DNA of 59,574 nucleotides, the filler included, from Dimargaris cristalligena (Eukaryota): the NCBI GenBank assembly GCA_003614675.1. It is 2 parts of 2 records of this genome, joined end to end, with 100 filler letters (N's around TTAATTAATTAA, not from the genome) between each part and the next. Parts side by side here need not be neighbours in the genome. Positions count along the whole stretch, not along the records: positions 1 to 29,741 come from ML002474.1; 1 more part is not named here. The stretch is one strand, 5' to 3'. The translations under genes and the position numbers were made by a program. The notes under the pieces were generated by a model. The model did no database searches. It was not told the DNA's origin and saw nothing but the letters and a program-made list of their open reading frames with translations. Positions within the stretch are counted from its first letter, which is position 1. Every line of letters starts with the position of its first letter. Positions 3,103 through 26,100 of this stretch are shown piece by piece.

Positions 3103-4654
3103 AGTGGACTAACTGTCAGCGACCCAAGGACGAAACCAAAAAAAAAATTGGAAGAGAATAAAGGCAATATTATTACTAAAAAGAAGGAGGCTGTGAACAG
3201 GCACCAAAGGGGATCGAGTAAAGGCCACTGGGGAGTGATCAAACCTAGGGAGGGGCTGAAGGACGACGCTAAACGAAGGCCAAAGGTCCCGAACAGTCCT
3301 ATTGGAGCGGAGGGAATAAAATAACCCAAATCTGGGCAGGGGTGGCTAACACACAAATATATACACCACCGCACACATAAGTAGGGCGAGAATTATGGAA
3401 GGAAGGGGAACGAGGTGTTTAAAGGGAGCGGGAGTGGTGTGTGAGTGGATTGGTGGGGAAGAGGGAGTGAATGAGTTCAAGAGGGGCTGCCAGGGGCCAG
3501 GTATTTATAGGGCCACTGCATTGTTTTTAAAAAGCCAGCTGGCCGGCGACTGGCCGGGGTTGTACAAAAGCCCGCTAAGCCATTCACATAGATGGCCTTT
3601 GAATATTGCTTAGTGGCTGCTTCCAACAATAAGAGGCTTCAGTGAGTGGGGCGATAGGGTGAGACTAAAGTGCATACATTTGGGAAACCCCCAGCGCATA
3701 TAGACAACTCGGGAAGAAGTTCTTCCGGCCAATGGCAGAGACTGCCTGTCACTGCTTATCATATGTAAAATTGCGTGCATATAACGAATGGCCAACCAGC
3801 TTAGGCTTTTCAGGTCAACGGTACATTAGATTGTTGATTTGGTGTATAAATGCATAAGTTTTCCCATTACCATTCGCGGGCGCGCGTGTCAGCGTGGATG
3901 TGGCCGGCAGCCCGCACAAGCACATGTGGTTAATGTTACGTTTTATCGGCCGTAGTTTAGTTGAAGGAGACCAGACTGGTCCGCTGTCTTTTAACCAGTC
4001 TGCCTCCTCACCTAAGCTAGAAATCTTCTATCTATCGCCGCCCCATTCCCAACGAGTGTGGAACCGCTACTTGTGTCCAACACGGTGGTTTTTCCCACTG
4101 GCTCTCCTTAGGCGTATCACCCTTCCCAGTGCTCCTTCGGGCTCAGACCCCCTGCTTCGAACTTGGGAAAGGAAAGCGGAGGATTCGCCGCAACATCTGA
4201 CCCAGCGGGCCAAAGCGCAGTACGACCGTACACTGAGTTTGGGTTGCACTCCCCCACCGCTCGTCTGTGCCACGACTATGCCTGTAAGGGCTCTGTCCCC
4301 GCAACGGGGGTTTTATCGATGCAGAGACCTCCAAATGAGATAACGGTCGACAGCAGCACTTACCCTAAGATCAAAAAACAACAGGGGGATGCTTTCTTGG
4401 TCAATTTCTGAAACATCCACCAATAGAGTTTCTAGAGTATGGCCCTTATACGCTATACAGGCAGAAATGAGGTCGCACACGCGCCATGGCGTATTTACAA
4501 CAGTCGACATTGCCTCCATGACACCCAACCACCGACCAAATAGGTCCCCACCGACAATTTCCGAGTTGGCGAAACGCTCCCCCCCCCAGGGCCCTCGGCG
4601 GAGGAACCTCTAACTACACCCTAAATGGGCCACATGGGTTGTCACACAGGGTGC

Positions 4655-4676
4655 TGGTGGTGGTGGTGGTGGTGGT
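4655..4676. repeat. (GGT)n microsatellite
   Basis: Run of tggtggtggt in intergenic DNA. Confidence 0.8.
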
Positions 4677-5611
4677 GATAATGGTGATTCGGGCAGCCAA
4701 CAGTCTCCACCGCCATAATTTGTTGGGCGCCCCCACCATTTGGGCGTTTCCCGAGGCTTGCAAGGGCTGAGTTGACTAATCTCGTCTTATTACCCTTGAA
4801 CTACGGGCGATCAATACTGAGGCCTATTAATAATTCTTCCAGCCCCTCACCTGCACTATTGCGCCGGGCCGGGATAGGAAGATTTGCTGTATTCTTGCGG
4901 TTCGTCATCGCCACAGTACCTAATGGCTTCCTTGTTCCTAGCTTTCCCCAGAGAGAAATGGAAAGACCTGTAGTTTAGAGTTCCCCGCACTAAACCGCAA
5001 TCAATTAGGGGTTTTATGACAGGCAAGTTGAGAGACCAGGGGTTTCAATCCAGCAAGGCATAATTTATGCACGACCTTTGAAGTCACCGAAACCCTGCTC
5101 ATGGTGTGCCACCACCACCATGGTTTCCTAATGTCGCCCGACGCTTCGAGAACAAACTTTCGGTTTTAACTAAGAATCTTATTTAATACAAAAATAATCT
5201 TAATTGGACAACCATACTGTTACAATGTCGGCGGTGTGGTTCTACCACAATACTCTCCCATTCAAGCCGTTATTTAAGGCCTACCTATGCATTGGGAGCG
5301 CTCCAAACTGTGTGTTACGAAGTGCCAAAAACCCCCGATGAAATGATAGGGGACCCCCATCCTACTGATTTCAATCATTATTCTTCCGGTTAGGGGAGAA
5401 TAGAAAAGGCTGGCACCATTCAGAGGGTTCCGGGGCTTAACTCCCACCTTCCTATCGGGACTTTCCAAGAGATAGGCGGCAGGTCAATGTGCTTCGCATT
5501 GAACGGGGCGACGGTCGGCCTAGCCAAATGGGGCAGTATTTTTAACCGTTTACTCCATCAGCGGTCATAAATACCGCCCTGGCCGGCAATTTTGTTCAAC
5601 GCCACGATTTC

Positions 5612-5780
5612 ACCGCTGATCCCATGGGCCACCCAAGGATAGATATCTCTTCCAAACCTGACGCCTGACCTCCCGCGGAGTTTCCGAGAGTAGATTCCAT
5701 CCCCATAGCTGATACACGTCGGTATTATGGGCCGAGTGGTTGACCTAGTGCCGGTGGAAAATAAGGGTATAGATCTGCAT
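5612..5780 (-). pseudogene. Possible decayed F-box-like gene fragment
   Basis: Frame from ATG 5780 reads MQIYTLIFHRH*VNHSAHNTDVYQLWGWNLLSETPREVRRQVWKRYLSL, which resembles the F-box pattern L..LP.E+...I...L and contains an in-frame stop. Confidence 0.2.
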
Positions 5781-6957
5781 CCTTCCAGACAGACTTTGCT
5801 TAGGACACTCCTTTGGGGATAGGTTGGGTGGTTAAGAGACACGTAGCTTAATTTTAACGCTTAGAATCCAACTGAACACATCTTGGCCTAGACCGAACCC
5901 CGGCTGTATCAGTTCCCTGTAGCACCCACCCTTATTCGGCATTTATCTTCAATAACATCTAGAGTCTATAGTTCTTTACCTGCTTGATTTTACCACTCTT
6001 CATTGTTAGGTTCGCCAGCTAGGATTAGGGAGTAGTCGAGTATTTTTTATTTTTTCAACTAGACGCTCATTTGAAAATCTGCCGCACTGGTGAGTTCAAT
6101 TCGCCATATACCCCAATGAGGGACTACACTGGTTTATGATGCCACCCCGTTTTTGGAATGGATTAGATAGATCTACCACTTTTCCCACCGTTAAGCTATA
6201 TAATCCACTACCAGGTCTGGAGTGAATGGGAGAAAGGCCATTTAAGCGTGGCTTCGGGTAAAGCCAATAGGTATTGGTTGGTCACAAATACAGTATTATT
6301 TCAGCCAGGACCAACAACTGGTATTCTTCTGGATCACATGGATCATGGTGGAGGCTTTGGGAACTGGAGGCAGTGAATTCTCTTCCAATTCGACAATTCC
6401 CATAACCAAACTAATGTATAAAAGTCTGAATCGTACTCAAAAGGTGAGTAAAACTACCTGGGCTATAGGAATGATCCTCGCCGTTCGCGGCTGCGACGTA
6501 TGCGCCACAAAACCAGGTATCCTATCGGAAGGCCGAAGATTCAAAGTCACTGGTGGCATTATCCCATTTAGTCCTAGCCCGGACCAACATACGAACCCGT
6601 TTAATCATTACCTTTCCTGGGTTAGTGGCGGCTTGGTAGCCCCATCTTCGCATATTCACAGTACCCAGCTTCATTGCGCGGTATTCGGAATTAATAAGAC
6701 CGGGGCCCTGTGTTCATCGCGTTATTGGTCACTACTTTTGTAAAGATTCCAACTGCGATACGCCTTAGACAAGCAAAATGGCAAGGGTCGGGAAACCCCG
6801 CTATATCGGCCATTCAATTGAATTGTCCCGAGGTTCAGTGGTGAATAAAGTCGTTCGTTGAAAAAACTAGACGGGAAGGGGCAGCTGAGTTTAGTCCGAC
6901 CAGCTAATCCCCAGTCAAGTCTATTAAAGTGATGAATACGCGAATGTAATGAACGGG

Positions 6958-7325
6958 CTTTATTTAGAATTGTGCAGCGAGTATGAGAGAATGGAGGAAG
7001 ATAAGAGCGGCAGGAACGCTAATAAACTAAGGGGGTAGCAGTTATCTGGCTGAACACCCTTTATATAGTCGGATTATATTCCATCGCGTGGATACTAGTA
7101 ACACTGGCATATATATGAGGTTCATCCCCGCTGGCCTTGTAAACCGGCGAACTTTGTATGACAGTCTCGCGACCACATCTAGGTGGGCTCGTCATTCATC
7201 GATGGCCGGGGTGTCTGACTGTTTAGGCCCCCAGCCACATCGCCATCTGACGGGGATACTGCCTGGTCATTTTATTGGCAGGACTAGCATCAGCCACCAG
7301 GGTAGAAGTAACGTATATATGAGTC
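6958..7325 (-). repeat. Diverged duplicated TATA-containing block, copy A (paralogous to 14473-14826)
   Basis: Colinear blocks GAACGCTAATAAACTAAGG (7014), ACCCTTTATATAGTC (7056, TATATAAA on minus strand) and GGGTAGAAGTAACGTATATAT (7300) match copy B with similar spacing. Confidence 0.65.
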
Positions 7326-8996
7326 CACCTAGTACAGCGTGTCGGTTGGTCAAAGGCAGCTCCGAAGAACGTTGAGAAGGGAAATTGAATACACAATGAA
7401 GCACTCGCCTATTCTTAGCTTGGCCGATTTTGTTGGTAAATAGGTGATTAATTATAATATACCAACCGGCCCATATTTAGCATATGGGTGAACTTCAACC
7501 CACCCGTATAAGATTTTACACAATATATGTATGGGATAATATGTGGGAGAATAACTTTTGACCAGTAATATTTACCTCATCAAATGGATTATTCGTTATA
7601 CAGCTTGGATGAATATCTGCCATATTTAATTTCCCTTGCCTTTTACTCCCTTTTGTTTGATTCATTGCGGACGTATCAGCCCTTATACCCTTCCATTTCT
7701 ACCTACACCAAGCAGCTTTAATGTGTCAATATTTTCCAGGGTATACTTGTGCTCAGTTGGCCAATATAGTATCGTGGTTATTTATTAGTTTTCTTTTTAC
7801 CTGTTATTCTCAAAAGATATATGCCTTAAACTGGATCGGCTTACTTACCCTAGGTTCCCTCGCTCTCAGCTGTGCCTCCGAACAGAATAATGTAAATGTG
7901 GCAGGTTGGGTAACCTAAAGAACTACCAACGACAAGGCACTGATTAGAAGCATCAGATATTTGTCAGAGTATCCAGGAAAGAGGTGGCCTGCGTTACTCC
8001 TGCTGAAAATTACCCTGAGAAGCAATACCAACTAACCATCCCTCTGCTCGGTGATACCTAATATCACCGAATATTCATGTGGAACATTTTTTATAATGTA
8101 GAAAGAAGGTAGAGGTTGAGTTAATTCAAAAGGGTTAGAGGGGGGCAGCAGCGTAAAAGGGATCGTCGAGCGCTGTGGAGCCTTGAACCCCTTCGATTGG
8201 GCGCCCCTTGGATAGTAAATGGGTGATTGTTGTTAAAACCCCCACTGCTAACTAAGACCACATCTCTTCAACTCCTTCGCCCCCTGTTCTCACCTGCCCA
8301 CACACACTCTCTCTTTGCATGCAATAGCTGTGATTAATGCGTCCATGTACAATATAACAAAGTGAGCTGAGCACTCTAACTTCTATACAAGGTTCCTCTC
8401 TTATGATTCATCTGTAAATTCACTTAACTCGCGAATTTTACGCATATTACTCTCCAAAGGCTACCTCCACAAAAAATGATACTGAATTGAGGATTGGGGA
8501 GCCCAGTATGTACATAAGAGGTCCAGAACTTAGCATACAAAGTAATTAATGTTGAAATAATACAACAAATAAAGGTGATTAGAGAAACAGTGGGCACCCA
8601 ATTTTTAAAAGGGGATATGTGCGACTCATTAACTCTTATTCAGCAATAACCCAAATGTCTGACTCGTTTGACCTACTTTTTTTATTTATATTGCCCGCAG
8701 TTGACATTTTCAAGCATCCCATTAATAAGTCAATCCACGGATGGGCGCCCTCCCCCATTGTCTTCTAAAATGATTAATCAATTTAACACAGTATTGGTAT
8801 TTCTTTAAGACTCAATGCTAATTAACAGTTGGCAATAGAGGTTGAGCCAGTTTCTACTTGAGGAGCGGAAGTGAGGTTGGCCATTTTTAATATAAGAACT
8901 AAATAGGAATTCAAACACATTTTAACGGATAATATTCCAAACTAAAATTTCCATACATATATAAGGATAGGTGCATCGCATCAAACAATAGACTCC

Positions 8997-10808
8997 TTAA
9001 AGTTGGAATCCAGGCGGTGCCTCACCAACTATTTCTCCAGTTGTTAAATCTATAGGAGGCATAAACCCGAATTCAATAGGATCGGTTGAAAGTGTCCCGA
9101 GGTTTCTATACTCGGTGGCTTCCGTATTAAACGGATAGAATCGAACTGAGGCATCACCATCAGTATCCAGGTAAATGGGATACTCGTTGGAGATGAAAAG
9201 GGTACGGCAACGTTGGGGAATCTCATTCTCCGATACCCCCAATTGGTCGACGAGCCGCTCCTTAGTGGGAATGGTCCAATTTTCCGGGAGAAGTGAGCGT
9301 TTGATAAAACCAGCCTCGACAGCACAGTAGCCGAGAATATCGTGAGACTGGCTCTTAAATTCCGGATCCGAAAGATCTTCAACGAGTGCCTGTCTTTGCT
9401 GGACTGCCGCAACCAAAATGGCCGTATTAAGTAATACTGGGACCGGAATCCGCCTGGGGGGCATTTCAGGCATCGGTGGCATATTCGTACCTTGGGGCAT
9501 AGGTGGTGGGACAGGCATACCCGGGACCATTATAGGAAGGGGAGGACCGTCCCCTGCCATGGGGGCTAGCGGAGGCATATCCATGTCAAGTTCCGGTCCG
9601 AAATCCATATCCGCGTTGTCTTCCGCATCCAACAGCATATTGGGGTCGACAATATAATCCATCCCCACCACGTTTGGATCATTTCCTAAATTCGGGAGAT
9701 TGACCGCTCTACCAGTATCCATGACCTGTTGAAGGCTGTTAGTTTGTACCGCCAGATTACAAATCGATCGAGACAAGGTGCTTCTCAGATCACGTTTGAT
9801 AATATCCGGCACATAAAACCTCAACATTTTAGCCATATGATCAACATCAGACAGGGCAATAGTCCTGGGTATGCTGGCAAATAAAAGAGTAGCTAGAAAG
9901 TTGACGTAACTCGGCGGCACCCAACGTTCCAACTGGCGATACATGGCTTCGTTAAAAGTATCACTGTACACGTACTCGATAATGGGAGTCAAGCTTGCGG
10001 AATCCCCGGTTCGGATCTTGCCTAGAATGGGGAAAAACGCGTCGAACACTTCGACGGAGCCTTCGTTGGCCTTCAGAGCATGGGTGTTTTTGTTGAGCCA
10101 TTCCAACTCCGGCTTGAAAGTCTGGATAGCTGATGTAAGGATGGGAAGTGCGGCTCCGGGAGGGGGCTGCCGGTGGGCTCTTGGGACGGGATTGCCCAAC
10201 TTATCAAAACAAAGGGTGGAGAGGCTCAAATGAATGGATTGGATGACAGTCAATCGGACAAGGTTACCAATGAGTGGGCTAAAATCCAGGAACTTTTTAT
10301 CCGCCTCGCTGTCACTGATGCCTGGGCTGTAGTAGCTGAGAGGGTTAGCCAAAAAATGGGTTTCGGCCTAATTGAAATTGATTTTCGTGGTTTGAATGAT
10401 TGGACGGTGATATTGCAATAGTCACAAAGGTTAATATTAGGTGCATGGATTCTGCTGACCCGTATACAATACGCTGGAAGGGTCACAATAATAGTAAGGG
10501 TGATCTACGGCGGGATGATTAGGAGGTTCACTAGCAGAGGGTTCATGAGGCTTGAACAAATATACCGCTATAGAAGGTAAATGTGTACTTACTCCCTCAT
10601 TCAATCGCTTGGGTTTCCCCAAAATTCTGGCCCTCCATGCACGATTGACATTGGCGGTCGTTACCTGATCAGGCAGCGGGAGGTTGTTTACCACATAGTC
10701 GCCGAGTTCCTTGGGTAGTTTTGCCAAGGGATCGATGACAGGCTGGGCCGACACAGGCAGGCTAAGTTGAGCCAGTGGAGCGCTCAATAACATAATGAGG
10801 CTTCTCAT
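8997..10808 (-). CDS. Putative secreted protein with N-terminal F-box-like motif (~528 aa), candidate effector
   Basis: Exon 1 10808-10593: MRSLIMLLSAPLAQLSLPVSA|QP signal-like, then DPLAKLPKELGDYVVNNLPLPDQVTTANVNRAWRARI (F-box consensus), GTAAGT donor. Tentative micro-exon 10504-10473. Exon 3 10335-8997, preceded by a GCTAAC branch site and CAG. Pro/Met-rich segment in the C-terminal half. Confidence 0.75.
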
Positions 10809-10974
10809 AGTAAGTGGAGTAGAGTTTGGGGCGATAATTTAAGGGGCAGATAAATAAAAAATCAATAGGTATAGCAAAAGAGCAAGAATATACTCTAATA
10901 CCACAAAATACAATGAAGCAAAAGGGGTTAAAATTATAAAGCTGGGTGGAAAATAAAAGGGCAAGCTGGTGTCT

Positions 10975-10981
10975 TTTTATA
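10975..10981 (-). promoter_or_regulatory. TATA box of the F-box-like gene
   Basis: GGGGTATAAAAAG on the minus strand about 170 bp upstream of ATG 10808, followed by a pyrimidine-rich leader. Confidence 0.5.
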
Positions 10982-12668
10982 CCCCTGCGCAACTCACCCA
11001 GGGTAAGGTTCAAATAGACCAGTCGTGCACCCTTACGCTACCGAACGAATTAAGCCAACTTCAAGTAATGGGGATACTGTCAAGGCACCACATGCAAGCC
11101 GGGGTTGGGTGAAACTGCTATTTTTCCTAAAAATGAGGACATTCACAATCGACCATGCTGTACTACAAGGAACACGCCTCATTAAGGCCAGGGTAGCAGA
11201 TTTGGACATTGGGTGTGGTCGTTACTCGTGGTGGTTAGGCGAACCAGAATTGGGGCTGCTTCTCATAGCAGCATTCCCTGGCCTACACATTTATAATGTT
11301 TCAGCCACAAGCTGTTTTAAGGTTGTCGCCAATGGCTTAGTCGGCTCTTTAGTAAAATATTAAGACAGGGTAGCCACCAAGAGTGTCCTAAAATAGTAAA
11401 CAGGGTTCGGGTACATGAGGAGTATATATTCCAAAGAAATGTTGGTGTTAAGTTTTACTTTGATAAACCAGCCCACTTTTAGAACCACCTAGTCATAGTC
11501 GGCATAGTGGTCCCCCGATACTTGGCCCAATTTGGTCGTTCACAATATTCCCACCTAGTTGTGTCATCCATTAAGGCTGAGGTGAGTCCCCATGTGATTA
11601 GGTATCCAATCTATCAAAGTTTAGCTACTAAGAAATAATAGAGGCCATTGGCCTTCCAATTCGCTTTGCGTTTTTGCCGATGACTGATACCAGGGGCCTC
11701 ACCTAGTTAATGGAAAAAATGGGCATGTTTTGGCCGGCCAGAGTTTGAGTGTATACTTTTAGAAGTTTTGTCAGCCATTTTACGTCAGGTTGCTGAGCCG
11801 ATGTCTGCTGGCTGAACAACAGCTTTGCCAATACTGGCAGTACAACGGCACCCCCCTGCATCCATATTAGCAGGGTGTAGAACCATAGAGTATAGTTGGT
11901 GCAACGAAGGTTTCACAAACGCAGCAAGTTTTCTATTGAAAAAAAAATGCGTGGCAAGTATATGTGTCTAACTAGATATTAGTTAGTGGAATAGGCAAAA
12001 TAATGGACTTCAAAAAACTAGGGTACCTAGACAGAATGAGGGGATAACACAGTCTACATTGTGATATATTTTACATTCTTTTGTGTCCCCATTGCCATCT
12101 TTCGATAGCACTCTTGGTAACATCCTTTTCCATAAATTCGCCTCTAGACTACATATCAGTCTACTATTACTTCACTGATAAGTATGGCTTATTCAGCGAG
12201 ACATCCATATATGTCCGCAGCCAGTTAGTGCTTCATACTTTGGTACCCATGATATTATTTAATCTACTCCTTGGATAATTTTACATCCTGGTTGGTAGAA
12301 TCTCCAGCCTAGTATCGCGACCTGCCTAGTGAAATTGTAGTGGAGGGACCTGGTGACCCAGTATAGGAAGTGGTGGTGATGTTATTGGACACAGAAGCTG
12401 TAATACCCGCCTGAGGGTTCATCTCCATCATTATATGATTTGCAGCATTAGAGAAAGTAAAGGCTGACTGCAAATTGGAAGGAACTATCAAGGAATATTA
12501 AGACATACTCCAGGGGTGCTACAGTTTTTTTATACATTATAAAGGTAACTACTAATAAAATAACTAATAACTACAAGTGATAATGAGTATAAGAAATAAT
12601 ATATAATGATAGGTAATATTTAACTGGGCTGATTATTTTGGTGATTAATTACCAGTTTCTTTTAACTA

Positions 12669-13255
12669 TGTTGGCCCTTCTAATCCACCTTAATCTGGAC
12701 ACTGGGCTGTCTGCCCTGATTAGGCCTTATAGCACCATGTTAACCTTCCCATGGCCACCCCCAGTACTATGGGATCACCCTATATCACATAACCCTTCCC
12801 CTTCCAGACTCCAGCTCTTTGCACTAATCACTCAGCATGCTGATCTGAGGACTCTTCTGGTTAACCTGAGAGTCTTCCAGATACTAGTAACCATCTGGTT
12901 AGCCTATTCTCACTATATACCTTAGTTACCTATATTCTTCCCTTGGGACCTCCCTCTGGAGTTGTCCCTGTGTATATATAATCAGGCCCCCTTGGGACTG
13001 GTTAGATACCTTAGCTTATTTCTTACCCCCTAGTTTACTCCAATAAACTTCATATATACTCACCCCCTCATACAGACTTGTAACTGTGCCCACTGCACAT
13101 CCCTTGCATAACTAATCACCTAGGCCTTTATTAGTTAGTACTGTTCCCCACACCTAATACTAGTAGCCCACTTGGCTGAGTCTAAAGCCCTACCTACCAT
13201 TAGAAGCCTATCCCTGGGACTCTTGATGGACTAAAAGTGGCAAACCTGGGTGACA
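12669..13255. mobile_element. Solo LTR (587 bp), copy 1, with 5-bp target-site duplication
   Basis: Ends TGTTG...TGACA (inferred ancestral TGTCG...CGACA). Flanked by AACTA (12664-12668) and AACCA (13256-13260). Homologous to 13313-13896 (inverted) and 29281-29572 (direct). No CpG seen. Confidence 0.75.
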
Positions 13256-13312
13256 AACCAGTTTAAATATTATATTGAAATAGTTTATTAATTTATTTTG
13301 GGGGGTTATGGA

Positions 13313-13896
13313 TATTGCATGGGTTAGCCACTCTTAGTCTGCCAAGAGCCCTGAGGATAGGCTTCTAATGGTAAGTAGGGTTTAGGTTTGGCCAAGTAGG
13401 CTACTAGCATCAGGTATAGGGTATGGGTACTAACTAATAAAGGCTAAGTATGATGATATATAAGGGGCATATAGTAGGCACACTTACTAGTCAGTACAAG
13501 GAAAGTAAGTATATATAGGGTTTATTGGGGTAAACTCAGGGGTAGGAATAAGCTAAGGAAACTAACTGGGCCCCATTGGGACTAGTTATATATATATGGA
13601 GATAACTCCAGAAGGAGGTCCCAAGGGGAGGATACTACTAAGACTAAGGTATAGATAAATAGGCCAACTGGATGGCCATTAGTATCTGGAAGACTCTGAT
13701 GGTAACTGGAAGAGTCTTTGGATTAGTACTCAAGTAATTAGTATAAAGGGGTAGAGTCCAGAAGGGGAAGGGTTATATGATATAGGATGATCCCATAGTA
13801 CTAGGGGTGACTATAGGAAGGTTAGTATGATGCTATAAGGCCTAATAGGGATGGATACTAAAGTATCTGGATTAAGGAGGATTAAATAGTCTAATA
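13313..13896. mobile_element. LTR copy 2 (584 bp), inverted relative to copy 1
   Basis: The reverse complement aligns along the length of copy 1 (e.g. ATTAGGCCTTATAGCA, AACCCTTCCCCTTC, CCATTAGAAGCCTATCC). Termini are mutated to TATTG/CTAATA. No matching TSD found. A G-run at 13300-13305 could be a PPT remnant. Confidence 0.75.
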
Positions 13897-14400
13897 AAGA
13901 CTTTACTCATTGTTTTCTTTAACTCCAAAGGGATTAGCCACCAGGAATTCACTCCCCAAGGCCAAATAGTCACTGGTCAGTACTGCCTGGGAGACTTGAC
14001 ATACCTACTGACAAGAATCAACTGTATACAGTTAGAGTATAAGGTGTAAGGATCCTGGGGTCTCCTCTCTGACAATGTACCCACATGTAAGTGCAAAATC
14101 ATCTGGGTATTTTTGGCTAAAAAGGGTGTGGTAATACTTGACCACCTGCTGTATTTACCTAATTTAGCCCCAGCTGACTTCTAGATGTTCCTAAAACCCA
14201 AGCTAGCCATGAAAGGGGAGCATTACAGCCCCATAAAGGACATCTAAGATACTTTAACTGATATCCTGAAGGGTATCCCAAAGGAGGGGTTTCCAAGCTA
14301 CTTTCACTCATTGTTTAGGTGATTCCAATAGTGTATTAATAAAAAAGGATCTTATATTGAATAAACAAAAAATAATATATAGATCTCAAACTGTTTTCAT
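13897..14400 (-). pseudogene. Possible hypermutated pseudogene of a secreted protein, ending at LTR copy 2
   Basis: AAAATG at 14400 lies about 170 bp downstream of the TATATAAA box. Frame reads MKTV*DLYIIFCLFNIRSFFINTLLESPKQ*VKVAWKPLLWDTLQDIS*SIL..., with a hydrophobic N-terminus and many stops in a CpG-free tract. Stop density is not lower than random. Confidence 0.3.
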
Positions 14401-14472
14401 TTTAGAGCACCAGTGACAGAACTTTTGGGTTAGACTATGTATATGCTATTAGTGAGCAAGTGAAGGGAGCGT

Positions 14473-14826
14473 TTTATTTAAAGACAGTGAAATGGAAATA
14501 GGAGAGCATGGTAGCATTTGGAACACTAGTAAACTGAGGAGCTATTCGTAAGATAATCGACATACCCTTTATATAGTCAGTACTATTCCATCTTGTACAG
14601 ACGTTAGTGCCTGGTGGACTTGTCCGGTCGAGATAAGGACCTCAGAGATCAAAGTCGTCATAGTGACGTTTACGACACTTCTTTATCTATTGGCAGGGGT
14701 TCTGGACAGTTGTCCCCCTGGTTATTTTGGTCCTGGGGCATGATATCGTTGGACCAGGGTGATGCCACGTTAGTGTTATCAGAACTGCGGCCGGTTATCG
14801 GGGTGGAAGTAATATATATATAAGCC
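14473..14826 (-). repeat. Diverged duplicated TATA-containing block, copy B
   Basis: GAACACTAGTAAACTGAGG (14521), ACCCTTTATATAGTC (14564) and GGGTGGAAGTAATATATATAT (14801), colinear with 6958-7325. Confidence 0.65.
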
Positions 14827-15267
14827 TTGAGTCAGGAATTTATTTAATAAAAATTTAATAGTAACAAGATTTATTGCTAAAACAGAGGCAGTGAATAATG
14901 CATTTTTTGTAAAACCCAGTCCAATCCAGCAGAGGTCGTTTTGAAACCTACACGAGAATATCCTTTGGAACTGGTAAGAATGGCAATCTTGTTATACCAA
15001 TAGTTGCACTACCTAGTGTTCTATTTTTACTATACACGAACATTGAATAATCTACTAATAATATTATCTACACTGACCACTTAAATTTTCCAATTATTAT
15101 TTTGAAGGAACACCCCATTGGCGGTTCTATACTATAACACGTTATGGTTCTGACTAGACCATGTCTACCGAAAGAATCCACCAGCCTTGCCAATGCTGTT
15201 TGACTGCTTCGGGTTAAGATGTGTTCAAAATTACTGATTTCTATTTCTTTTTTGTCCATTTTTGCCC

Positions 15268-18198
15268 ATGTCGTGCCATCGTTGCATGCTTCTCACTAGC
15301 CGCTGGCCAAAGTACCCCTGGGTCCGATCCGTTTCGAGCCATGCGGGAAAGCGGCCGCCGCCAATTCCACCAACTACCACCAGGTCTGCCCCATTGGGAC
15401 CTTCTTCTCCGCGCCGGACTACCCCTTTGCCCTCACCGAATTCCACCCCCGTCCGCCCACCCCTGGTCTCTAGCAAATCCCCCCAAGCGGAATTGGCTGA
15501 GCTATTGGCCAAGGGCTTGGTACTGGAGGCCCGGGTCTTGTTCTTTAATCTTCTCCGTAGTACACCCCAGGCCCGACTGGAGCCCGCCATCTACGAAAGG
15601 CTATTCGGCTCTTTGCGGTTTCTGACTGACCCGCAGGGACGAATTGACCCGGTGGTATCCCAAGACATCGGTGCGGTTGCGGCCCGGGTCCAGCGGGAGC
15701 CCGAGCGGTGGCTGGCACGGTTTCGTGGACTTAAGTGGGCGTCGTCACTTTCCGTGGTTGCCGAATTCCGAAGCGCGGCGATGGCTCTCATTGCCATTGG
15801 CCAATTGGACCAGGCCATCCGGTTAATCCATAGCGCTATACACCATGGGTACCGGTTGGACGAAGGTACACTACACGCCGCTGCCCGGGCGGCCCTGATC
15901 ACTCCGGAAAGTAAAGGGCACTTGCAGCTTCTCCAGCTGATGCACGCGTTCGATATCAAGCCCCTGACCGCTTACATCGAAAACATGATCAAGGCATATA
16001 CCTCAACATACGACGGCATGGATATGTTTAAGCTATTTTTGTACCAGCTCCGGGCTATGCAATGTCCCCCGATTATCCAATATTACGCGACCATTGCCGC
16101 CCATACGCTCAGCAATGATCCGGACACGGATCTTATTTTATGGCTCTTCCACTCTAATATGCCACCGGATCTTCGTCGGTGGGCCCCTAAAAGGCTTTTT
16201 TGGTGGACTGCTATGCTTTGCCGAATTGGCCGTGTTCACTTGGCCTATCGCCTGTACCGAGCCGCACTGGACTTTGGATATAAGCCCCAAATCGAATCCC
16301 AGTGGCTGTTGGCCCGGGAGGCCCTCATCCACGATCCGAGTTTGGTGCCTGGACTAGTGGCCGAAATGACCGCGACGAATCCGACCCCCACCACCTCCAA
16401 CGCATCCACATCCGCATCCCTGACTCCCCCCCAAAAGGACGATAGGCCACCCAAACTTGATCCGTCACAATGGGAGAGAACTGTCCACAGCCTATTTATT
16501 TCGCATATCCACAAAGTGTCCCACATGACGCTACTTGAGTTCCTCGACAATTTGCGAGTGCACTACCAGTACGACCTACTCCATCAGGCACTTGTGGCCC
16601 TCATTCGGGCCCCTCCCCGTACTAAAGGCTGGCTAGGGACTATGCTTTATGGACTCGAAAGTAAAGGGGCTACCACGATTATCTGGACCGCTTACGACGC
16701 TTGGAAACGGGGCCAACTCCCCCTTCGCATTATGGATAAGACGTTACTTCTTAATTCTTTGGCGGCCATTGGCGAACCGGAGGCGGTGCGTACGCTGTAC
16801 CATGGTGCTCCCCAATCCCACGATGTCCGGAATACCTACCATTACCAGTTCTTGCTATACCCTCTGGTGATGGCCGGATTCCACGATCTGGTCTACGATT
16901 TCTACACCCATTACGCCCAGTGTAGGCCTCCCACGAGCACGACCAAATCCACCCACGTAGTAGTCAACCATGCCTTATCGAGCAGTGCAGCTATTAGAGA
17001 CACCCAGTGGTTCGACCGGATACAGCAAGATATGCAGCAGTGGGGTCTCCCGGCTAACGAGTATACCTATGCCGCCATCCTGCGCGGCCACTTTATAGCC
17101 GGGAACCACGCGGCAGTACAGACTACTCTTACCCGGCTAAGTGGTCGTCCGGAAATTCACACCGGTTTGGTGGTTAAGAAGGCGCTGGGCTTTCTGGCGA
17201 TCAGCCATCGTATCCCCGAAGCATTGCAGTTCGTGGGATGGGCCGTGGCGCAACAGCTGCCCATCGATCTGGGGGCATTTAGCACCCTTTGCTACGCGGT
17301 GGTTGGTTTGGGCCGAGTCGCTCTGTTCCCCTACCTCGTACCATTATGTAAAGACCGGCCCATCACGCCCGGCAGTTTAAATTTTTTGATGTTCAATGCC
17401 CTTTTTTACCGCGAGTACGAGCACTGTATCGAGCTGTTCCAGACCCACTACGAGGCCCCAGAGTTAAGATCGCAGGCCCTGATCGACCCCTTCACCATCG
17501 CCTCCATTTATCTCGAACAATGGGAGCCGTGTCTCGCGGTACTGCGTTCCGGCGAACTCACCCACCACAGTCGTACCCTGATCCTGACCCGCGTCTTGGA
17601 GTTCGGTGGCAGTCACCGGAGCCCGACCATCGTCCGGGGGGTGACGACCCTGTTGGATCAGCTAAATATGTGGGGGCAGCCGCGCAGTTTCGTATTTTAC
17701 ACGGGATTATTCCAAGTCTACTCGCGTTTCGAGGACCACGCCGCCATGGCCACCCTCTGGGCCGATTTGCAACGCAACCCACATAGTATGGGGAACTGCA
17801 CCCTCTCGGTGTTGATTGACTGTGGCCGGATCCACCAATTTCCCCCCCTGGCCGAAGTCTTGGAATCGGCCGCGGCCCGGGGTTTAGAATTCAACGCCGG
17901 TAACTTTACCAGTTTGGTCGAATACTATTGCCATACCAATAACCCCCAGGCGGTTTTGACGGTCCTGACCCACGATATGCCCCAGCGGTGCATTGCCGTG
18001 GATCGGAAGTTAATGCGACACATCGCCTTCATCATCCAGCAGTTCGGCTCCCCTGAATCAATCGGCCAGATCCAACGTTTTGTGGCTGATACCCGGAACC
18101 AGGATTGGTTCGACTGGTGGAATGGGGCCTGTGCGGATTATATTTCCCAATGTCGGGAGGCCGAGGCCGATCGGATCAGAAAGGAAAACGGTCGTTGA
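15268..18198 (+). CDS. Pentatricopeptide-repeat-like protein, probably mitochondrial
   Basis: Intronless ~976-aa ORF (first ATG 15268). Arg/Ser-rich, acid-free N-terminus. PPR-like units such as PANEYTYAAILRGHFIAGN, SFVFYTGLFQVYSRFEDHAAMATLWADLQ and NAGNFTSLVEYYCHTNN. Confidence 0.75.
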   Translation: MSCHRCMLLTSRWPKYPWVRSVSSHAGKRPPPIPPTTTRSAPLGPSSPRRTTPLPSPNSTPVRPPLVSSKSPQAELAELLAKGLVLEARVLFFNLLRSTPQARLEPAIYERLFGSLRFLTDPQGRIDPVVSQDIGAVAARVQREPERWLARFRGLKWASSLSVVAEFRSAAMALIAIGQLDQAIRLIHSAIHHGYRLDEGTLHAAARAALITPESKGHLQLLQLMHAFDIKPLTAYIENMIKAYTSTYDGMDMFKLFLYQLRAMQCPPIIQYYATIAAHTLSNDPDTDLILWLFHSNMPPDLRRWAPKRLFWWTAMLCRIGRVHLAYRLYRAALDFGYKPQIESQWLLAREALIHDPSLVPGLVAEMTATNPTPTTSNASTSASLTPPQKDDRPPKLDPSQWERTVHSLFISHIHKVSHMTLLEFLDNLRVHYQYDLLHQALVALIRAPPRTKGWLGTMLYGLESKGATTIIWTAYDAWKRGQLPLRIMDKTLLLNSLAAIGEPEAVRTLYHGAPQSHDVRNTYHYQFLLYPLVMAGFHDLVYDFYTHYAQCRPPTSTTKSTHVVVNHALSSSAAIRDTQWFDRIQQDMQQWGLPANEYTYAAILRGHFIAGNHAAVQTTLTRLSGRPEIHTGLVVKKALGFLAISHRIPEALQFVGWAVAQQLPIDLGAFSTLCYAVVGLGRVALFPYLVPLCKDRPITPGSLNFLMFNALFYREYEHCIELFQTHYEAPELRSQALIDPFTIASIYLEQWEPCLAVLRSGELTHHSRTLILTRVLEFGGSHRSPTIVRGVTTLLDQLNMWGQPRSFVFYTGLFQVYSRFEDHAAMATLWADLQRNPHSMGNCTLSVLIDCGRIHQFPPLAEVLESAAARGLEFNAGNFTSLVEYYCHTNNPQAVLTVLTHDMPQRCIAVDRKLMRHIAFIIQQFGSPESIGQIQRFVADTRNQDWFDWWNGACADYISQCREAEADRIRKENGR

Positions 18199-19119: not shown

Positions 19120-21134
19120 TTAGTCCTCATCCCAGTTGCTGTTGTTCTTGGGGGGTTTAGGGCCACCAGCGGGTTTGCTCATAATAATTTGATCCACCTT
19201 GAGAATGGTCAAGGCAGCGGAGGTCGCGTAGCGCAAGGCCCACTGCTTAACGACTAAGACATCAAAGATGTTGTTCTGGACGGCATCAAGGACCCCCGAC
19301 GACGACGCCGACACCTCACCCACAGTACCGGCCAAGGTAGTAGCGGCCACCGTACTGGTAGCGGCTTCCACATCAACGCCAAAGACGCCGCGGTCCGATT
19401 TGTAGTGGGCCGAGTACAGCTTGGCGATGGTTTCGGAGCTATCGAGACCGGCGTTTTCGGCCAAGGTGCGGGGAATGACCTCAAGGGCTTCGGCGTACTT
19501 CTTGATGGCGTGTTGGTTCAGACCGGGGGTCTTTTCACCGTAGTTGGCCAAACGCTTGGACAGGGCCATTTCAGTGGCTCCGGCGCCGGCCAACAGGCGG
19601 GTGTCCTTGGTCAGGGCCTTGATGACGTTGACGCCATCATCGATGGCACGCTCCAGGTCGTCCAAGTGGTTCTGGGTGGCTCCACGAATCACAATGGTGA
19701 CAGTCTTGGTCGCCTCGGCCTCCTGACGGAAGACCGTGACCCGGTCCCCGCCAATTTCCACGGACTCCACCACATCACAGTAACCCATTTCCTCAGGGGT
19801 AGGGGCACCCAAACGGGCCAGAGCGGTAGCACCGGTAACGCGGCACAGACGGCGGAGATCAAATTTGGAGAGCACCTTGAGGGCCATGATGCCGTAGCGG
19901 TTGAGGTAGTGCATGACCAAGTCACCGATACCCGAGCCGGTCACAATCACCTTGACGCCAGCATCCGCCAGTTCCTTGACCTGAGTCTCAATCAGGACCT
20001 CTTCGCCCTTGGAGAAGTCAAGCATCTCCTGGGCGCTCGAGAGCAGCACGGTGCCCTTGGTTTCAGTCTGCGAGATATCCAAGGAACAGGTGAAGATGGC
20101 TACCTTGGCCTGGTTGGCGTTACGGACGATGCCTTCGGGCTGGCGAGCGAACACCATACCCCGCAGGACGCGGCTGTCATAGATGCCGCCACCCATGATC
20201 TTAACCACGCGCACACCGTCGACGCTGAACTGGGCGGGGTTCTTGGGCATGATCTGACCCACGGCCTCGGTGACCAGGTCGGCGAGGAGGTCTTCGTAGC
20301 CGTATTGCTTCGACGCAATGGCGGTACGGACGGCCTTGCGGAGCTCGGCGGGGTCGGCGAGACTGTTGACCTTATCGACCACCAGCTCCTCGAGAATTTC
20401 CTGGGCTTTGGCGGCCGCTAATTCGTAGCCCTGGATAATTTCACTGGGGTGCAGACCCATGCGCAGCAGCATCTCGGCCTTTTGCAATAACTCACCGGCG
20501 AAAATCACCACCAGGTTGGTACCGTCACCGATTTCCTGTTCCTGCTGCTGGCTGCTCATGACCAACAGGCGGGCGGCGGGGTGCACGACCTCCAACTCCC
20601 GGATAATGGTGGCGGCGTCATTGGTGACGAAAAGCTTTTCCAGATGGTTAATCACCATCTTATTGCGACCGTTGGGGCCCAGGGAGGTCCGGGTCATTTC
20701 AGACATTTCCTTAATGGCGCCGATATTCCGAACCACCGCTTCATCGGTTCCTTGAAGATGCTAGGGGGTGGGGAAAATATAAATAGTGTGGGGTGTATCG
20801 AGTACAGTGCCGAGTCGCAAAGGACCGGTGTGGAGAACAGTATATAGTTGTATAACCAGAGTTGTTAGAAAATTAGGTTCGTCACCGAGGATGAAGCAGG
20901 ACTGGACTCGGGCCCGACAAAGTATTCCAAGAATTGCTAGGGTTTCTGTCGGACTCTCGGGAATCAACCCAATAGGTGGTTCGGCCCTAGTATATATATA
21001 GCAACCTGGGAGTAAATGCAGGGTTACGATACGAACCACCGAATGATCAACTCATCTACCGAGAAATGTAGGCGTACCTTGTACCCATCTTTGAAGAGCT
21101 GGGGCATCATGGGTTTGGGAATCCGGAGAGCCAT
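19120..21134 (-). CDS. CCT8: T-complex protein 1 subunit theta (chaperonin CCT8)
   Basis: Exons 21134-21078 (MALRIPKPMMPQLFKDGYK) and 20760-19120. Motifs RTSLGPNGRNKMVINHLEKLFVTNDAATI, GDGTN, SKFDLRRLC and C-terminal VDQIIMSKPAGGPK...WDED. Confidence 0.97.
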
Positions 21135-23118
21135 AGTGAATAATATATATTGAACTCGCTGAGAGGATGGCGGGGTGGAAAATAGGGTGGATCACCAACT
21201 GAACGGGAATTAGCAGATATTTGGAAAAGGAAATCAAGAACCTGGATTTAGTAGCAAGAAAGTAGAAGTAATGATCAAGGTCAGGCAGCGCTGCTGAAGG
21301 GCAAGGCTGTTCTCGCTCAGGCCGGGCCACTCCGCTCACTCGCTCTCTGATGTTCTTTGTCAGTCTAAGGATGACCCAGTCCCAGGCCACTTTTACATGG
21401 GCCTCACCCCTTTAAAGCCCAAGACCGGAGTCGGCTGAATTTTTGTTACTGTAGTGCCCCATTTAATACCATGGGCTTTAGCTTGCAATATACAAGAGTG
21501 GTGGACGTTGATTTAATAACAGTGCTGCCCACACTCTTGGTTGAAATTGGTTTACTAAAGGTCCGCTCAGAGAGAGTCGGTGCACCAGGGCTCATTATAA
21601 ATCTAATAGCTATGGTGTTTAGACCATTCATTTGGTGTATAGTTTACTCTATTCTCACATAGGCCTACCACATCTCTAGTTGGCTATTATTGGCATCTGC
21701 ATGGCTTTGTTTAACTATTGATTCGTCCGAATATTATTATGCCGTCAACTTCCCAAAATAGATCAGGTAGTCTATATTAAATATCTGTAACCAATATACC
21801 CCCCCTTTATTGACCTACTCCCAGCTTATGCTGCATCCTGCTGGATAAACTAACGAATGCGTCCAATTATATAGCCAAAAACCATTACATCTTGATCATT
21901 AGAATCAAAATTATCTGATACAAAATTCAACAGCAGTGACTATCGACCCACACTATATAATGGATAAGCCAACATAACACGCCCTGTGACCAACAGAGAT
22001 CACTCACATTGACTTATTATTTAATTACTTATTTAAAATACTTGTGGCTTACTTTGATAAATGTGTTGAGGTTTTATCTTACTTTTCCCTTCAGGCTCTT
22101 GGCAACACAAGTCTCTAACCCATTGGATAGGATGCTGCCCCTTTGCGCTCCCCATATTGCTCCCCCGCCAAGGCCTAAAACCAATTCCTTTTAAATTCAG
22201 ATGGGCCATCTATGTACCATTACATCTGTCTGGATATGGACAGGCAAGGCCGTGGGGGTTGGATAGCAGGCAGTCGCGTTGGAGGGTGATTCTGTAGAGG
22301 TAGTATCAGGGGAGCAGCCAAGGGGCTATAATGAATTGCTTGCCGTTGACTATTATTGGAGCTGTTACCTCAAAACCCGGCGGATCAATGCAACGGAGTC
22401 CATTTTAGAGTGGCCACCTATGAACCATAAAAGCTATTTTATATATATTTGCGGAGTTTTACGTTTGGATTGGAGTGTTAACGGAATAATTAATGGAAGA
22501 GACAAGCGGATCACTCATTGAGGATTGACGTTGGCACAACTGCGATTGTCCCTGGCCACAAGCGCAGTGTCAGGCCACCTTGGTTATATTCTATACACCG
22601 CCAGCTGGTCACGCTTGCGGGGTTGGTGCCTTTTCAGCTGCTATGTGCGAACCGACCTCCGCCTGGAGTGTGGTACCTCGAAACACTAGCTTTCTATGCA
22701 TGCATTCAATTCTGGTGTTTCGCCCTAGTCTATGCCAAGTATTAGTAAACTTTCCCTCTTTCTTTCCCTTTTCTCTATTAGCATAGCCCTGTTTTCTATA
22801 TAACGACCCTTTTCCACAGAAACATACCAATGTCTCTGTAGTTGTCCTTCCCGCCATTGTTATTCCTCTGTTACGCCCTCCTAATTCATACCTACCTTTA
22901 ATTCCCCCTACCGCGCTGCCTCCCCCAGTGCTCAGTTTAGGGCCCCGAGCCACCTTTTCTAATCTCCACACCAGCTGGAGCCGCCCAGTCCTGCGTCCTA
23001 ACTAGCCGCATACATACTATTATACTTCCAGCCCTTAGTTGTTGACTGCAGTTCGATAGTCGTGAATTCAACGCCGTTCTCCCTTATATTTGGCATCTCT
23101 ATTGCGTTTTCCTTACCC

Positions 23119-26100
23119 ATGTCCGCCATACCGCCCGTTTCATGGTGGCCATGGCTCCATAATCTCCTCTGGCCGATTCTCCGCACCGCCCTCTACATCC
23201 CACCATTAATAGTTACCGTTCTTGTAGTTCTCATTAGCATCAACGTTGTAGTCACCTATTATCTGTACCGGCAAAAAATTCACCAGTCGACTTCTCCCAA
23301 GCGCCGTGTAACCCCGGGTGCGGCACTCTACCCTGACGTTCCGTGTTTGCGCTTCATTCACGACGAGCCTGGTTGGGCGGACGAAGACGAGGCCGTCATT
23401 CCCTTCACCGACGGCGGGATAGTACCTGAGCCCATACCTAATGACAACCCGACCTCCCCCGGCACGGATAAGTTGGCCACCCAGGAATTAAACCTCCAGC
23501 TCAATACCCTCCTGGATTATGCTATTCGGGATTTTGTTCGTAGCTGGTTTCATACCATAAGCACCGACAGCCGTTTTCCCCATAGTGTTCGCCAGGAAAT
23601 TACCGAGATATTACGAAAAGTAGCCAATCGGGCCGACCGGTTTGATTTGCCAACCCTACTGTCCAATCGGATAATACCCATTGTAACGGCCCATTTACAC
23701 CAATTTCGCCTCGCTGAGCGTAAGGCCCGCAAGGTGTGGCAGGCCCGTGGCCTACCTACGACGACAGGTCGGCAACCCGAATCCCTGGCTCCAGCGGTCA
23801 CCGCAGCAACTAACACCAGTGCATCCACCCATACTCCATCTAAACACTCCATGTCGGCCGAGGGCTGGTCGGTGCCAATGGAGGAAAAACAGGCCTGGGA
23901 TCGGTTAGTACTTCAACACTACCTCCCCAGTATGCTCCATCGTGCGATTGATCCCACAGCTATCACTGCACCCGCCCCACCCTTGGAATCGCCTGTTTGG
24001 CCTGCCGCCACAGTGTCTTTAGGTCACTTGCGCCAACTTACCACCCAGGTGTTACCACTGGTGTGTCCGCCAGCCACTCTGCAATCCCCCCTCCAGGCCG
24101 TCTTTATCCGCGAGATTATAACCGGGGCCGTCCTTCGCCCGGTGTGCCTCACCCTGTGTGATCCGGATACCTGGAATACCCAGCTTGACCAGTTTCTGAC
24201 CCGGGCCATCGAGGAGCAAAATATGATCGCCCAGCTTCGGCAAGCCTTGAACGAGCAGTCCCAGCCGGTTGACTTGCTCAGCGGTCGGCCCGTAGAGGGG
24301 CGTCACTCCAACGAGGCCCAGCGGGACCCCCTGGTATCACCAACCCTACCCGCCATCACGGCGGGGAGTGGCATCACCTCCGTTGCAGCCAAACTACAGG
24401 GCGCGGCCTCCCACGCCCTGACCAACGCCGCCCATTCTCTACCATTCGCCCCCCGCGCGTCGTTGGATGGTGCACCTACTTACGACCAATTCATCTACAG
24501 CGTGAAGCACTGTACCGATTTGGGCGAAATCAAGCAAATTCGGAACCAGATAGTCGCCCAAATTCGCACCAAACGCATTCTGGTGGAGGGGAAGAACAAG
24601 CAGGAAGTGGTGCACGGGGAACGAGTCAAAGATATCAACGTATACATCAACCGCCTTCTCATTGCCAAAAAACTCGCCGAGAAACAAATTATGCTCCTGG
24701 GTCGGGAAGTCTACCGTAAGGATCGCTACAGCAGCTATTTCATGCCGAATGGCCCCGGCCCGGCCTGTCTGGATACCGTGAAGGAGGACCTCGCGCCAGT
24801 ACCGGGAGTCCGTCAGCCCGTGGGGGGTCGCAGCCGGGCGGACTCGGCCCCGGAAGTCGCCGTTACTGATGGCACGGCCTACCCATATCCGCACGGACCC
24901 CGCTTCACCTTTCACGAAATCCTGACTAACCACGTCGCCCTGTCCTACTTCACCGAGTACATGGATTTGATCGGTAAGATCATCAATCTCCAATTCTGGC
25001 TAACCGTGGAGGGGCTCAAACGGCACCCCCAGTCGACCAACGCCCAACAGCTAGGGACCGTTCTCCGCGCCATCTACCGCACTTATTTTTCGGCGGATGC
25101 GGTGGATGAGCTAGATATTTCCGACGATATGGCCCAGGACCTGCGCGAGCGATTCGACCAATTTAACCGAAATTACATGGTGGACTCAGCCGACGAACTC
25201 GGACCCGACCGCAGCCAGGAATTGTTCGAGCTGGTCATTGCCGCCCAGTACGATGTGTTCCAGTCCATGAAACAGCAGTACTACCCGTTGTTTTTGCGGA
25301 GTGGACTCTATTACCGGTTTTTAACGGCCAACAGTAATCCAGAGGAGCAAGCCCCGCCTAGTCCATCCCTCGCCCAGTCGCCCGTCACCATCTCTTCTCA
25401 CTTGCTAGAGCCCCGGGGCCCTACCCAACGCACTCGGCGGTCCCCCTCGATCAACAGTTCCCTTTCAGCCCGTTATGGGTTAACCATGGGCTCACAGGCG
25501 AGTCGACCCCCTCGCGACACGGATACCATCCGAACCTCATCCTCGCGCTTGGCCCCCTCGGATATTCTGCTGGGACGTTCCCGCGGTCTACCCCAGCCGT
25601 CTGATAAATCCAGCGCCATTGCGGCGGTATCCACTACCACCGTGAGTATCCACACCAGCAAGTCTGATGTGGGTTCGCTTGGTTTAGCGATCCATCAATC
25701 AAACCCCACTCGCTCCCCATTGGTCGAGTCCCAGCAACTAGGAACCAGCCTTCCCTCTACGTTAGGGAAGCTCCCTCCTATCGGGCCCCGCCCTCCTCCG
25801 GCCTCATCCACAGCCACGGCTACCACTACCATCCACCACCGGGTGATGGTTCCAGTCCCCACCACTGAGGACCCTCTACTCAATCCCAATAGGGATCCGG
25901 CACAGCCTAACCGATGCCCATCAACCCCCACCCAGGGGACTCCTCCGGATACGGATACCGAGTATAATCCCGAGCCCACCGAAATCCCCGAAACTGACCT
26001 ACTGGCTACAGATGCGGTAGAAGCGGTAGAAGCGGCCCTGACCTCGATTGTCCAAGGTCATTCCACGGCCCAGGTCCGACCTCCGCTTTCGCGGCCCAAC

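Follow-up and report, generated by a model that had tools for sequence, protein, structure and literature searches.

A gene on the minus strand of a 59,574-nucleotide (nt) stretch of the Dimargaris cristalligena genome (GenBank assembly GCA_003614675.1; two joined parts, hereafter the window) encodes a 528-residue protein in which a signal-peptide-like leader is followed directly by a predicted F-box fold and then by a large helical region that matches no Pfam family. The same layout, with conserved leader features, recurs across an expanded family of paralogues that, by sequence searches, is restricted to this species. We tentatively propose that the window protein is a member of a D. cristalligena-restricted secretory-pathway F-box family acting as a host effector. 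The coordinates of its features are collected in Table 1.

The preliminary description of this sequence had placed such a gene at the same coordinates and on the same strand, and these hold: on the minus strand the frame opens with an ATG at 10808 and closes with a TAA stop at 8999-8997, giving the 528-aa protein. It had also assumed two introns, where our model needs one. Left unspliced, the frame runs through that intron into a stop at 10436-10434, and splicing would yield ...KPKRLNEG|AETHFLANPLSYY..., a junction (RLNEG|AETHF in the window) that is colinear residue for residue with RLNKL-AETRFSANPLSYY in P0002 (RLNKL-AETRF) and RLNMI-AESEF in P0003, two full-length D. cristalligena database proteins that are paralogues of the window gene. 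A single intron thus modelled suffices and agrees with the paralogue protein models. The second GT..AG stretch, in frame and 117 nt long (9520-9404, minus), is spliced out in the public model P0001; we read it as coding because its removal loses an alanine that is invariant in the family (11/11 rows) and shortens a conserved helix modelled with confidence, so that the P0001 annotation is probably wrong there. An in-frame stop lies 10 codons 5' of the ATG, which means that the leader is not the artefact of a start missed within exon 1. Using tblastn over the window, we found a single copy of the gene. No full-length protein for this locus was found in the public collections searched, where the sole model is P0001. 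This partial protein, taken from a second D. cristalligena assembly, is identical to the window protein at 285 of 289 residues and shows no disruption.

The motif LAKLPKEL...VNRAWR lies directly after the leader, as had been noted at the outset. F-boxes are defined by a Leu-Pro pair, an acidic residue, a hydrophobic ladder and the tryptophan of helix 3. In a family alignment of 14 rows (A2), with column counts taken over the rows that cover each column, these residues are retained: P32 in 10/11 rows, E34 in 10/11 and W58 in 12/12. They are kept even between paralogues that share 18-34% identity, which implies selection on that surface, and the family LP and W align LP-to-LP and W-to-W with those of FBXW7 and FBXO42. 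Searching the family profile against 177,635 PDB sequences placed the FBXW7 F-box at the top (E 0.021); F-box proteins made up 6 of the 14 matches at E <= 10, all of them on profile positions ~24-61, and the other eight were scattered elsewhere (E 0.31-1.3). Within the 14-row alignment, Pfam F-box-like (PF12937) matched six rows and F-box (PF00646) four at E <= 1, in each case immediately behind the leader, and P0011 was the only row above the curated F-box cut-off (23.9 vs 20.5 bits). Several family members are already labelled 'F-box domain-containing protein' in UniRef, so the F-box call itself is not new.

Structure prediction pointed the same way. An AlphaFold model of window residues 23-72 alone reached a predicted local distance difference test (pLDDT) of 73.6, with helices at 11-20, 23-32 and 34-42. 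VIA-align against 48,161 chains ranked the FBXW7 F-box first (5ibk_E; Z 5.8, root mean square deviation (rmsd) 2.1 A, 46/48 residues aligned, 33% identity), and F-box chains from Skp1 complexes, recognized by entry title and aligned range, filled 15 of the top 16 rows. Foldseek gave F-box proteins in 6/7 rows (rmsd 1.6-1.9 A, E 2.5-9). The full-length model of P0002 (pLDDT 74, predicted template modelling score 0.72) likewise has helices at 33-42, 45-54 and 56-79, and its residues 24-63 superpose on the Skp1-bound AnkB F-box (Z 3.5, rmsd 2.0 A over 40 residues, rank 43 of 48,161 chains). Matches to F-box clusters in the ESM Atlas (scores 0.85 and 0.83), with structural TM scores of 0.20-0.27, serve as leads only. 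On the family profile and the residue 23-72 model, an F-box fold, in line with the F-box motif of the preliminary description, is predicted with high confidence. The pairing of leader and F-box goes beyond chance, given that diverged paralogues repeat the layout and that the model resembles F-boxes of solved structure.

Ahead of the F-box, the window protein begins MRSLIMLLSAPLAQLSLPVSA|QP, with an n-region MRS (+1), an h-region LIMLLSAPLAQLSL and a c-region PVSA that offers a single -3/-1 site, VSA|QP, at residue 21; the mean Kyte-Doolittle (KD) value of its 10-residue hydrophobic core is 2.28. By a rule set covering n-region charge, KD core and -3/-1 residues, the protein thus has the n-, h- and c-region features of a classical leader for Sec61 and signal peptidase, in keeping with the signal-peptide-like N-terminus first described. 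The same features are present in 10/10 distinct loci with complete N-termini (the window, P0002, P0003, P0016, P0017, P0011, P0012/P0020, P0014, P0007 and P0021). Across these loci the n-region is net positive in at least one public model, the core KD ranges from 2.06 to 2.71 and the -3/-1 sites lie at residues 16-28; at the P0012/P0020 locus the shorter model, P0012, has an n-region charge of 0 and the longer, P0020, of +1. P0019, which is a second model for the P0011 locus with an extended N-terminus, lacks leader features at its own start, and six models that are fragments or lack the N-terminus (P0023, P0018, P0005, P0004, P0010 and P0013) fail the rule set with cores of 0.87-1.54, which serves as an internal negative control. 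Leader sequences have diverged among paralogues to the point of being barely alignable and still keep these features, which suggests selection on the property rather than on the sequence.

The leader's hydrophobic core spans ~14 residues and is interrupted by proline. No 19-residue window of the whole protein reaches a KD of 1.6, the usual threshold for a transmembrane helix (best 1.52), and together the short core and this absence argue against a membrane anchor. The first 20 residues of the P0002 model have pLDDT values of 54-57. In every family member the F-box starts 1-10 residues past the putative cleavage site, and so it would stand at the mature N-terminus. By eye, a mitochondrial presequence was rejected, given the single Arg, the continuous hydrophobic core and the absence of an amphipathic Arg-rich helix, as were a glycosylphosphatidylinositol anchor and endoplasmic reticulum (ER) retention, the C-terminus ...APPGFQL being neither hydrophobic nor KDEL/HDEL-like. 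No uptake motif was recognized by eye after the leader in the family alignment.

To place the gene among known proteins we relied on two large searches. A word-indexed search of 5.8 billion proteins returned three matches among 5,766 candidates, all from D. cristalligena, and a HMMER profile search of 1.84 billion representatives returned 15 proteins at E <= 1e-3, with E <= 1e-30 for six. Thirteen of these 15 carry the name D. cristalligena; P0008, unnamed and 122 aa long, is a fragment alignable with the family, and P0015 is a repeat protein of 1,043 aa whose match covers just 43 profile positions and is probably spurious. No relative outside Dimargaris was named in that profile search, and on this sequence evidence the family is an expansion restricted to D. 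cristalligena. Counting paralogues, a check named in the preliminary description, gave ~12-14 loci in the public protein collections (clusters at 50% identity, seen in two annotated assemblies), with identities to P0002 ranging from 64% down to 18%. The leader, F-box and helical domain are laid out alike in the window gene and nine other loci. An exon-1-only search for longer proteins that join the leader and F-box to other domains returned only P0002. The preliminary description had considered its proposed effector system little described should the organism be a haustorial mycoparasite, and the available parts of two sources place the Dimargaritales among such parasites (PMC3734964), with hosts in the Mucorales and Ascomycota (PMC3734964; PMC9866270).

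Behind the F-box, the 456-aa exon 2 matched no Pfam family, in line with the ~450 aa of unrecognizable sequence originally reported, and Pfam searches of family members found no leucine-rich repeat (LRR) or ankyrin (ANK) domain. The P0002 model predicts this region to be nearly all-helical with high confidence, broken by a disordered linker whose equivalent in P0002 (299-368) has pLDDT < 50 and whose length and sequence differ among paralogues. In the window the linker contains repeated MPP/PPxP units, e.g., PPLP and PVPPPMP (9438-9695, minus), and similar Pro/Met-rich tails end the paralogues P0017 and P0023; such a segment may act as a flexible spacer or offer a binding site to SH3/WW-type domains. 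The conserved columns of exon 2 hold structural residues (L, P, G, F, Y, A), and none of them has an invariant His, Asp, Ser or Lys that would hint at an enzyme. Apart from two cysteines, no polar or reactive residue of their region is invariant, in a family with a mean column identity of 24%, and two paralogues contain no cysteines besides these. Lacking further invariant ligand residues, the cysteine pair more typically signals a disulfide, and a conserved disulfide, the simplest reading of the pair, would fit passage through the secretory pathway. Searching PDB with the full-length P0002 model, Foldseek found no match at E <= 1e-3 and VIA-align reached at best Z 5.0 (PEX15, rmsd 3.9 A, 134 residues), not above unrelated rows. 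The modelled C-terminal helical domain is therefore described here as one without a clear solved match, and we do not claim that its fold is new.

Table 1. Positions of the gene, its exons and intron, and the predicted protein features, in window coordinates.
Feature	Position	Strand	Description
Whole gene	8997..10808	minus	2 exons, 528 codons + stop; colinear with P0002 and P0003
Exon 1	10808-10593	minus	72 codons; ends at GTAAGT donor
Intron	10592-10368	minus	225 nt, GTAAGT...AATTAG, phase 0
Exon 2	10367-9000	minus	456 codons, then TAA
Signal-peptide-like leader, residues 1-21	10746..10808	minus	MRS / LIMLLSAPLAQLSL / PVSA; by heuristic; putative cleavage after A21
Predicted F-box, residues 23-72	10593..10742	minus	three helices; LP 31-32, E34, W58; Pfam, profile, AlphaFold, Foldseek, VIA-align
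Helical domain part 1, exon-2 residues 1-224	9696..10367	minus	no Pfam match; high-confidence helices in the P0002 model; conserved structural residues
Pro/Met/Asp-rich low-complexity linker, exon-2 residues 225-310	9438..9695	minus	23 P, 12 M, 10 D in 86 residues
Helical domain part 2, short beta hairpin and tail, exon-2 residues 311-456	9000..9437	minus	contains the two family-invariant cysteines
Invariant Cys codon, exon-2 residue 348 (C411 in P0002)	9324..9326	minus	Cys in 12/12 covering rows
Invariant Cys codon, exon-2 residue 387 (C450 in P0002)	9207..9209	minus	Cys in 12/12 covering rows

What could such a protein do? Skp1 is cytosolic or nuclear, so that an export leader joined to a Skp1-docking module is a contradiction for a protein that stays at home; a route of secretion, entry into another cell, Skp1 docking and substrate choice would reconcile the two. 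In this proposal the signal peptide would bring the protein into the ER, where cleavage after Ala21 would leave the F-box at the mature N-terminus. Released at the parasite-host interface, the haustorium, the protein would reach the cytoplasm of the host fungus, and its F-box would dock on host Skp1 and so join a Skp1-cullin-F-box (SCF) ubiquitin ligase. The helical domain, stabilized by a probable disulfide, would then recruit host proteins for ubiquitination, with diverged paralogues choosing different targets; alternatively, the protein may merely sequester Skp1. Haustorial parasitism, restriction of the family to one species and strong divergence among its paralogues fit this effector picture, and D. 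cristalligena combines the features to be expected of its bearer: a parasite with access to host cytoplasm, a heuristically recognized export signal and a modelled F-box. The proposal stays tentative because every functional step in it is inferred, namely cleavage, secretion, disulfide formation, uptake, Skp1 binding and target recruitment.

Several observations weigh against the effector proposal. The Pfam F-box hidden Markov model, suggested in the preliminary description as a check, gave a mixed answer: PF00646 does match residues 30-64 of the window protein (E 0.0076), but its 16.6 bits lie below the Pfam cut-off of 20.5, and 13 of the 14 aligned rows are sub-threshold or without an F-box match in Pfam. 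Foldseek returned no F-box match at E <= 1e-3, and the VIA-align Z of 5.8 is modest, the tool warning that Z < 8 can reflect a common arrangement; these structural scores are low because the domain is small (~45 residues), and it is the specificity of the match lists, not the absolute score, that carries the argument for the modelled fold. The leader, for its part, was called with a simple rule set and not with a trained predictor. Other zygomycetes offer further grounds for caution. The accessible text of one report describes an orphan F-box expansion, a 31-member family, in the non-mycoparasitic Choanephora (PMC5238444), and expansions of this kind, presumably endogenous, are common among zygomycetes. 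The predicted secretome of Mortierellomycotina lists two F-box-like orthogroups as indicators, together with typically intracellular families (Hsp70, WD40, kinase, RhoGAP; PMC9391592, Table S6). Proteins of intracellular type often receive leader predictions, not all of them credible, and since F-box-like groups occur in the non-mycoparasitic Mortierellomycotina, a leader with an F-box is not peculiar to a parasite; the predicted combination may partly be prediction noise.

Some of these points also speak for an endogenous adaptor, that is, an F-box protein serving the SCF of Dimargaris itself, whose N-terminus either tethers it to an organelle membrane, where the F-box faces the cytosol, or plays no part in targeting. 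Every cellular F-box role known to us is cytosolic or nuclear, the F-box fold and motif of the family are conserved, other zygomycetes have lineage-specific F-box expansions, and their predicted secretomes hold many plainly intracellular families, F-box-like ones included, so that what looks like a leader on these proteins may be mispredicted or may be an anchor. We nevertheless judge such an adaptor unlikely: the core is short and interrupted by proline, with its best 19-residue window below the transmembrane threshold; positive charge lies N-terminal to the core in 10/10 loci, favouring translocation of the C-terminal side; small -3/-1 residues stand at the expected distance; and the invariant cysteines look more like a disulfide pair. 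Those signal-peptide features and cysteines would also suit a secreted protein outside the SCF system, structural, adhesive or sequestering, that works outside cells or at the haustorial interface and carries its F-box-like module as an inherited or convergent scaffold with Skp1 binding lost. Weak F-box scores in most members, a Pro/Met-rich linker and tails typical of extracellular or interface proteins, and the absence of an uptake motif recognizable by eye after the leader all agree with it, but the retention of the F-box LP, E, W and hydrophobic positions at 18-34% paralogue identity and a modelled fold that specifically matches Skp1-bound F-boxes make it improbable. Finally, exon 1 might not be joined to the long open reading frame (ORF), or the locus might be silent, leaving an annotation artefact or a decaying gene. 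Public proteins do represent the locus only by the partial, differently spliced P0001; yet both exons are intact, their junction is colinear with two full-length paralogue proteins, only 4/289 residues differ from the copy in the other strain, and nine other loci share the layout of leader, F-box and domain, so that we consider an artefact very improbable.

F-box mimicry is established in bacteria, plant viruses and one insect. Our literature search found no paper joining Dimargaris and F-box, and queries on F-box effector and secreted F-box phrasings returned almost entirely bacterial effectors among the matches listed, where the phrase 'secreted F-box' was absent. Among the matches listed, no described fungal secreted F-box effector was found in the literature searched; a review of Ascomycota speaks of a 'lack of supportive material' where eukaryotic pathogens are concerned (PMC8146833). 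The conserved leader and F-box, the family structure and the mycoparasite context thus appear undescribed. Should the effector proposal hold in full, this would be the first family of fungal F-box effectors translocated into a host and the first acting between fungi, with about a dozen paralogues released from haustoria, docking on mucoralean Skp1 and marking differing host proteins through a previously unseen, disulfide-braced domain; we put this fuller picture forward as possible but doubtful. Its interest lies in the fact that molecular control of the host by haustorial mycoparasites of early-diverging fungi is almost unknown. The family comprises about a dozen genes that can be cloned to test one clear prediction, host Skp1 binding. 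If the effector proposal is true, the helical domain would be a new substrate-recognition fold that could serve targeted protein degradation in fungi, and if the leader is a membrane tether, the family would be an unusual class of anchored endogenous F-box proteins.

The genomic surroundings of the gene were surveyed as well. The flanks (4400-9000 and 10900-15200), ~4 kb each, have a lower G+C content (0.40-0.46), and neither Pfam matches in ORFs of >= 90 aa nor transfer RNA genes were found in them (4.4-9.0 kb and 10.9-15.2 kb), consistent with a gene-sparse setting or with unrecognized intron-rich genes. Housekeeping genes lie further out, at 19-1497, 15238-18198, 19120-20760, 23002-28716, 46570-49368 and 52524-54050: a P-type ATPase, a pentatricopeptide repeat (PPR) protein, a TCP-1/CCT subunit, a PXA-RGS-PX-Nexin_C sorting nexin, PAT1 and a coenzyme A transferase, none of the six related to ubiquitin or secretion. 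A 475-aa ORF at 55905-57332 (minus) matches Pfam TERB2 over residues 33-94 (E 1.6e-6, 28.7 vs a 27-bit cut-off); TERB2 is a telomere-associated meiotic protein unexpected in a fungus, and the match is possibly due to chance. A 278-base contig in the assembly of Vallitalea maricola (L001) carries a fragment 44% identical to the TCP-1/CCT subunit of the window and is probably eukaryotic contamination in a bacterial assembly.

Among known systems, counterparts from zygomycetes are two Mortierellomycotina orthogroups, OG0000176 and OG0000338 (> 300 aa, PF12937 F-box-like, predicted secreted; Chang et al. 2022, PMC9391592, Table S6, mmc7). Like the Dimargaris family they are zygomycete, predicted secreted and F-box-like, and they differ in belonging to another subphylum without a parasitic lifestyle; the comparison is one of table rows only. 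The main text of that study mentions neither F-box nor Dimargaris, and according to its Table S2, 815 proteins of D. cristalligena RSA 468 are predicted to be secreted (PMC9391592). Row DimcrSC1 of its Table S10 (mmc11.csv) contains one 17-member orthogroup of predicted secreted proteins > 300 aa, OG0000177 by column count, which is similar in size to the Dimargaris F-box family and may or may not correspond to it. Canonical F-box proteins (FBXW7/Cdc4, FBXO42, FBXL17, Skp2) provide the best profile and structural matches of residues 23-72 and share the LPxE...W motif. They are cytosolic or nuclear, lack a signal peptide and select substrates through WD40, LRR or Kelch domains, whereas the window protein has a leader directly before its F-box and an unclassified domain behind it.

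Similar in proposed function are effectors that are delivered into hosts, where, according to the accessible parts of two sources, Ralstonia GALA/RipG, Agrobacterium VirF and Legionella AnkB carry an N-terminal F-box and enter host SCF complexes (PMC4312480; PMC4617103). The window protein shares the N-terminal position of the F-box, and the AnkB F-box in its Skp1 complex (5k35_A) aligns with the residue 23-72 model at Z 4.8. The bacterial proteins travel through type III/IV machines by means of bacterial signals and have LRR or ankyrin domains; in contrast, the window protein has a eukaryotic Sec-type leader, as judged by the heuristic, and a different target domain, and its delivery is proposed. 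Among eukaryotes, the SSGP-71 proteins of the Hessian fly (Mayetiola destructor) are described, in the portions of the reports available, as an expanded family of signal-peptide-bearing F-box effectors that interact with host Skp proteins (PMC4617103; PMC7330099). Here too a eukaryotic parasite has an expanded family that joins a leader to an F-box, as in Dimargaris. The two differ in that SSGP-71 has LRRs and the Dimargaris family an unclassified helical domain without a Pfam match, that one is an animal system on a plant and the other a fungal system on a fungus, that there is no sequence relationship beyond the F-box, and that Skp binding has been shown for SSGP-71, whereas the Dimargaris F-box is known from sequence and model. 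Since no member of the Dimargaris family has an LRR or ANK match, the family is, as far as sequence comparison goes, an analogue and not a member of the GALA/RipG, VirF, AnkB and SSGP-71 families.

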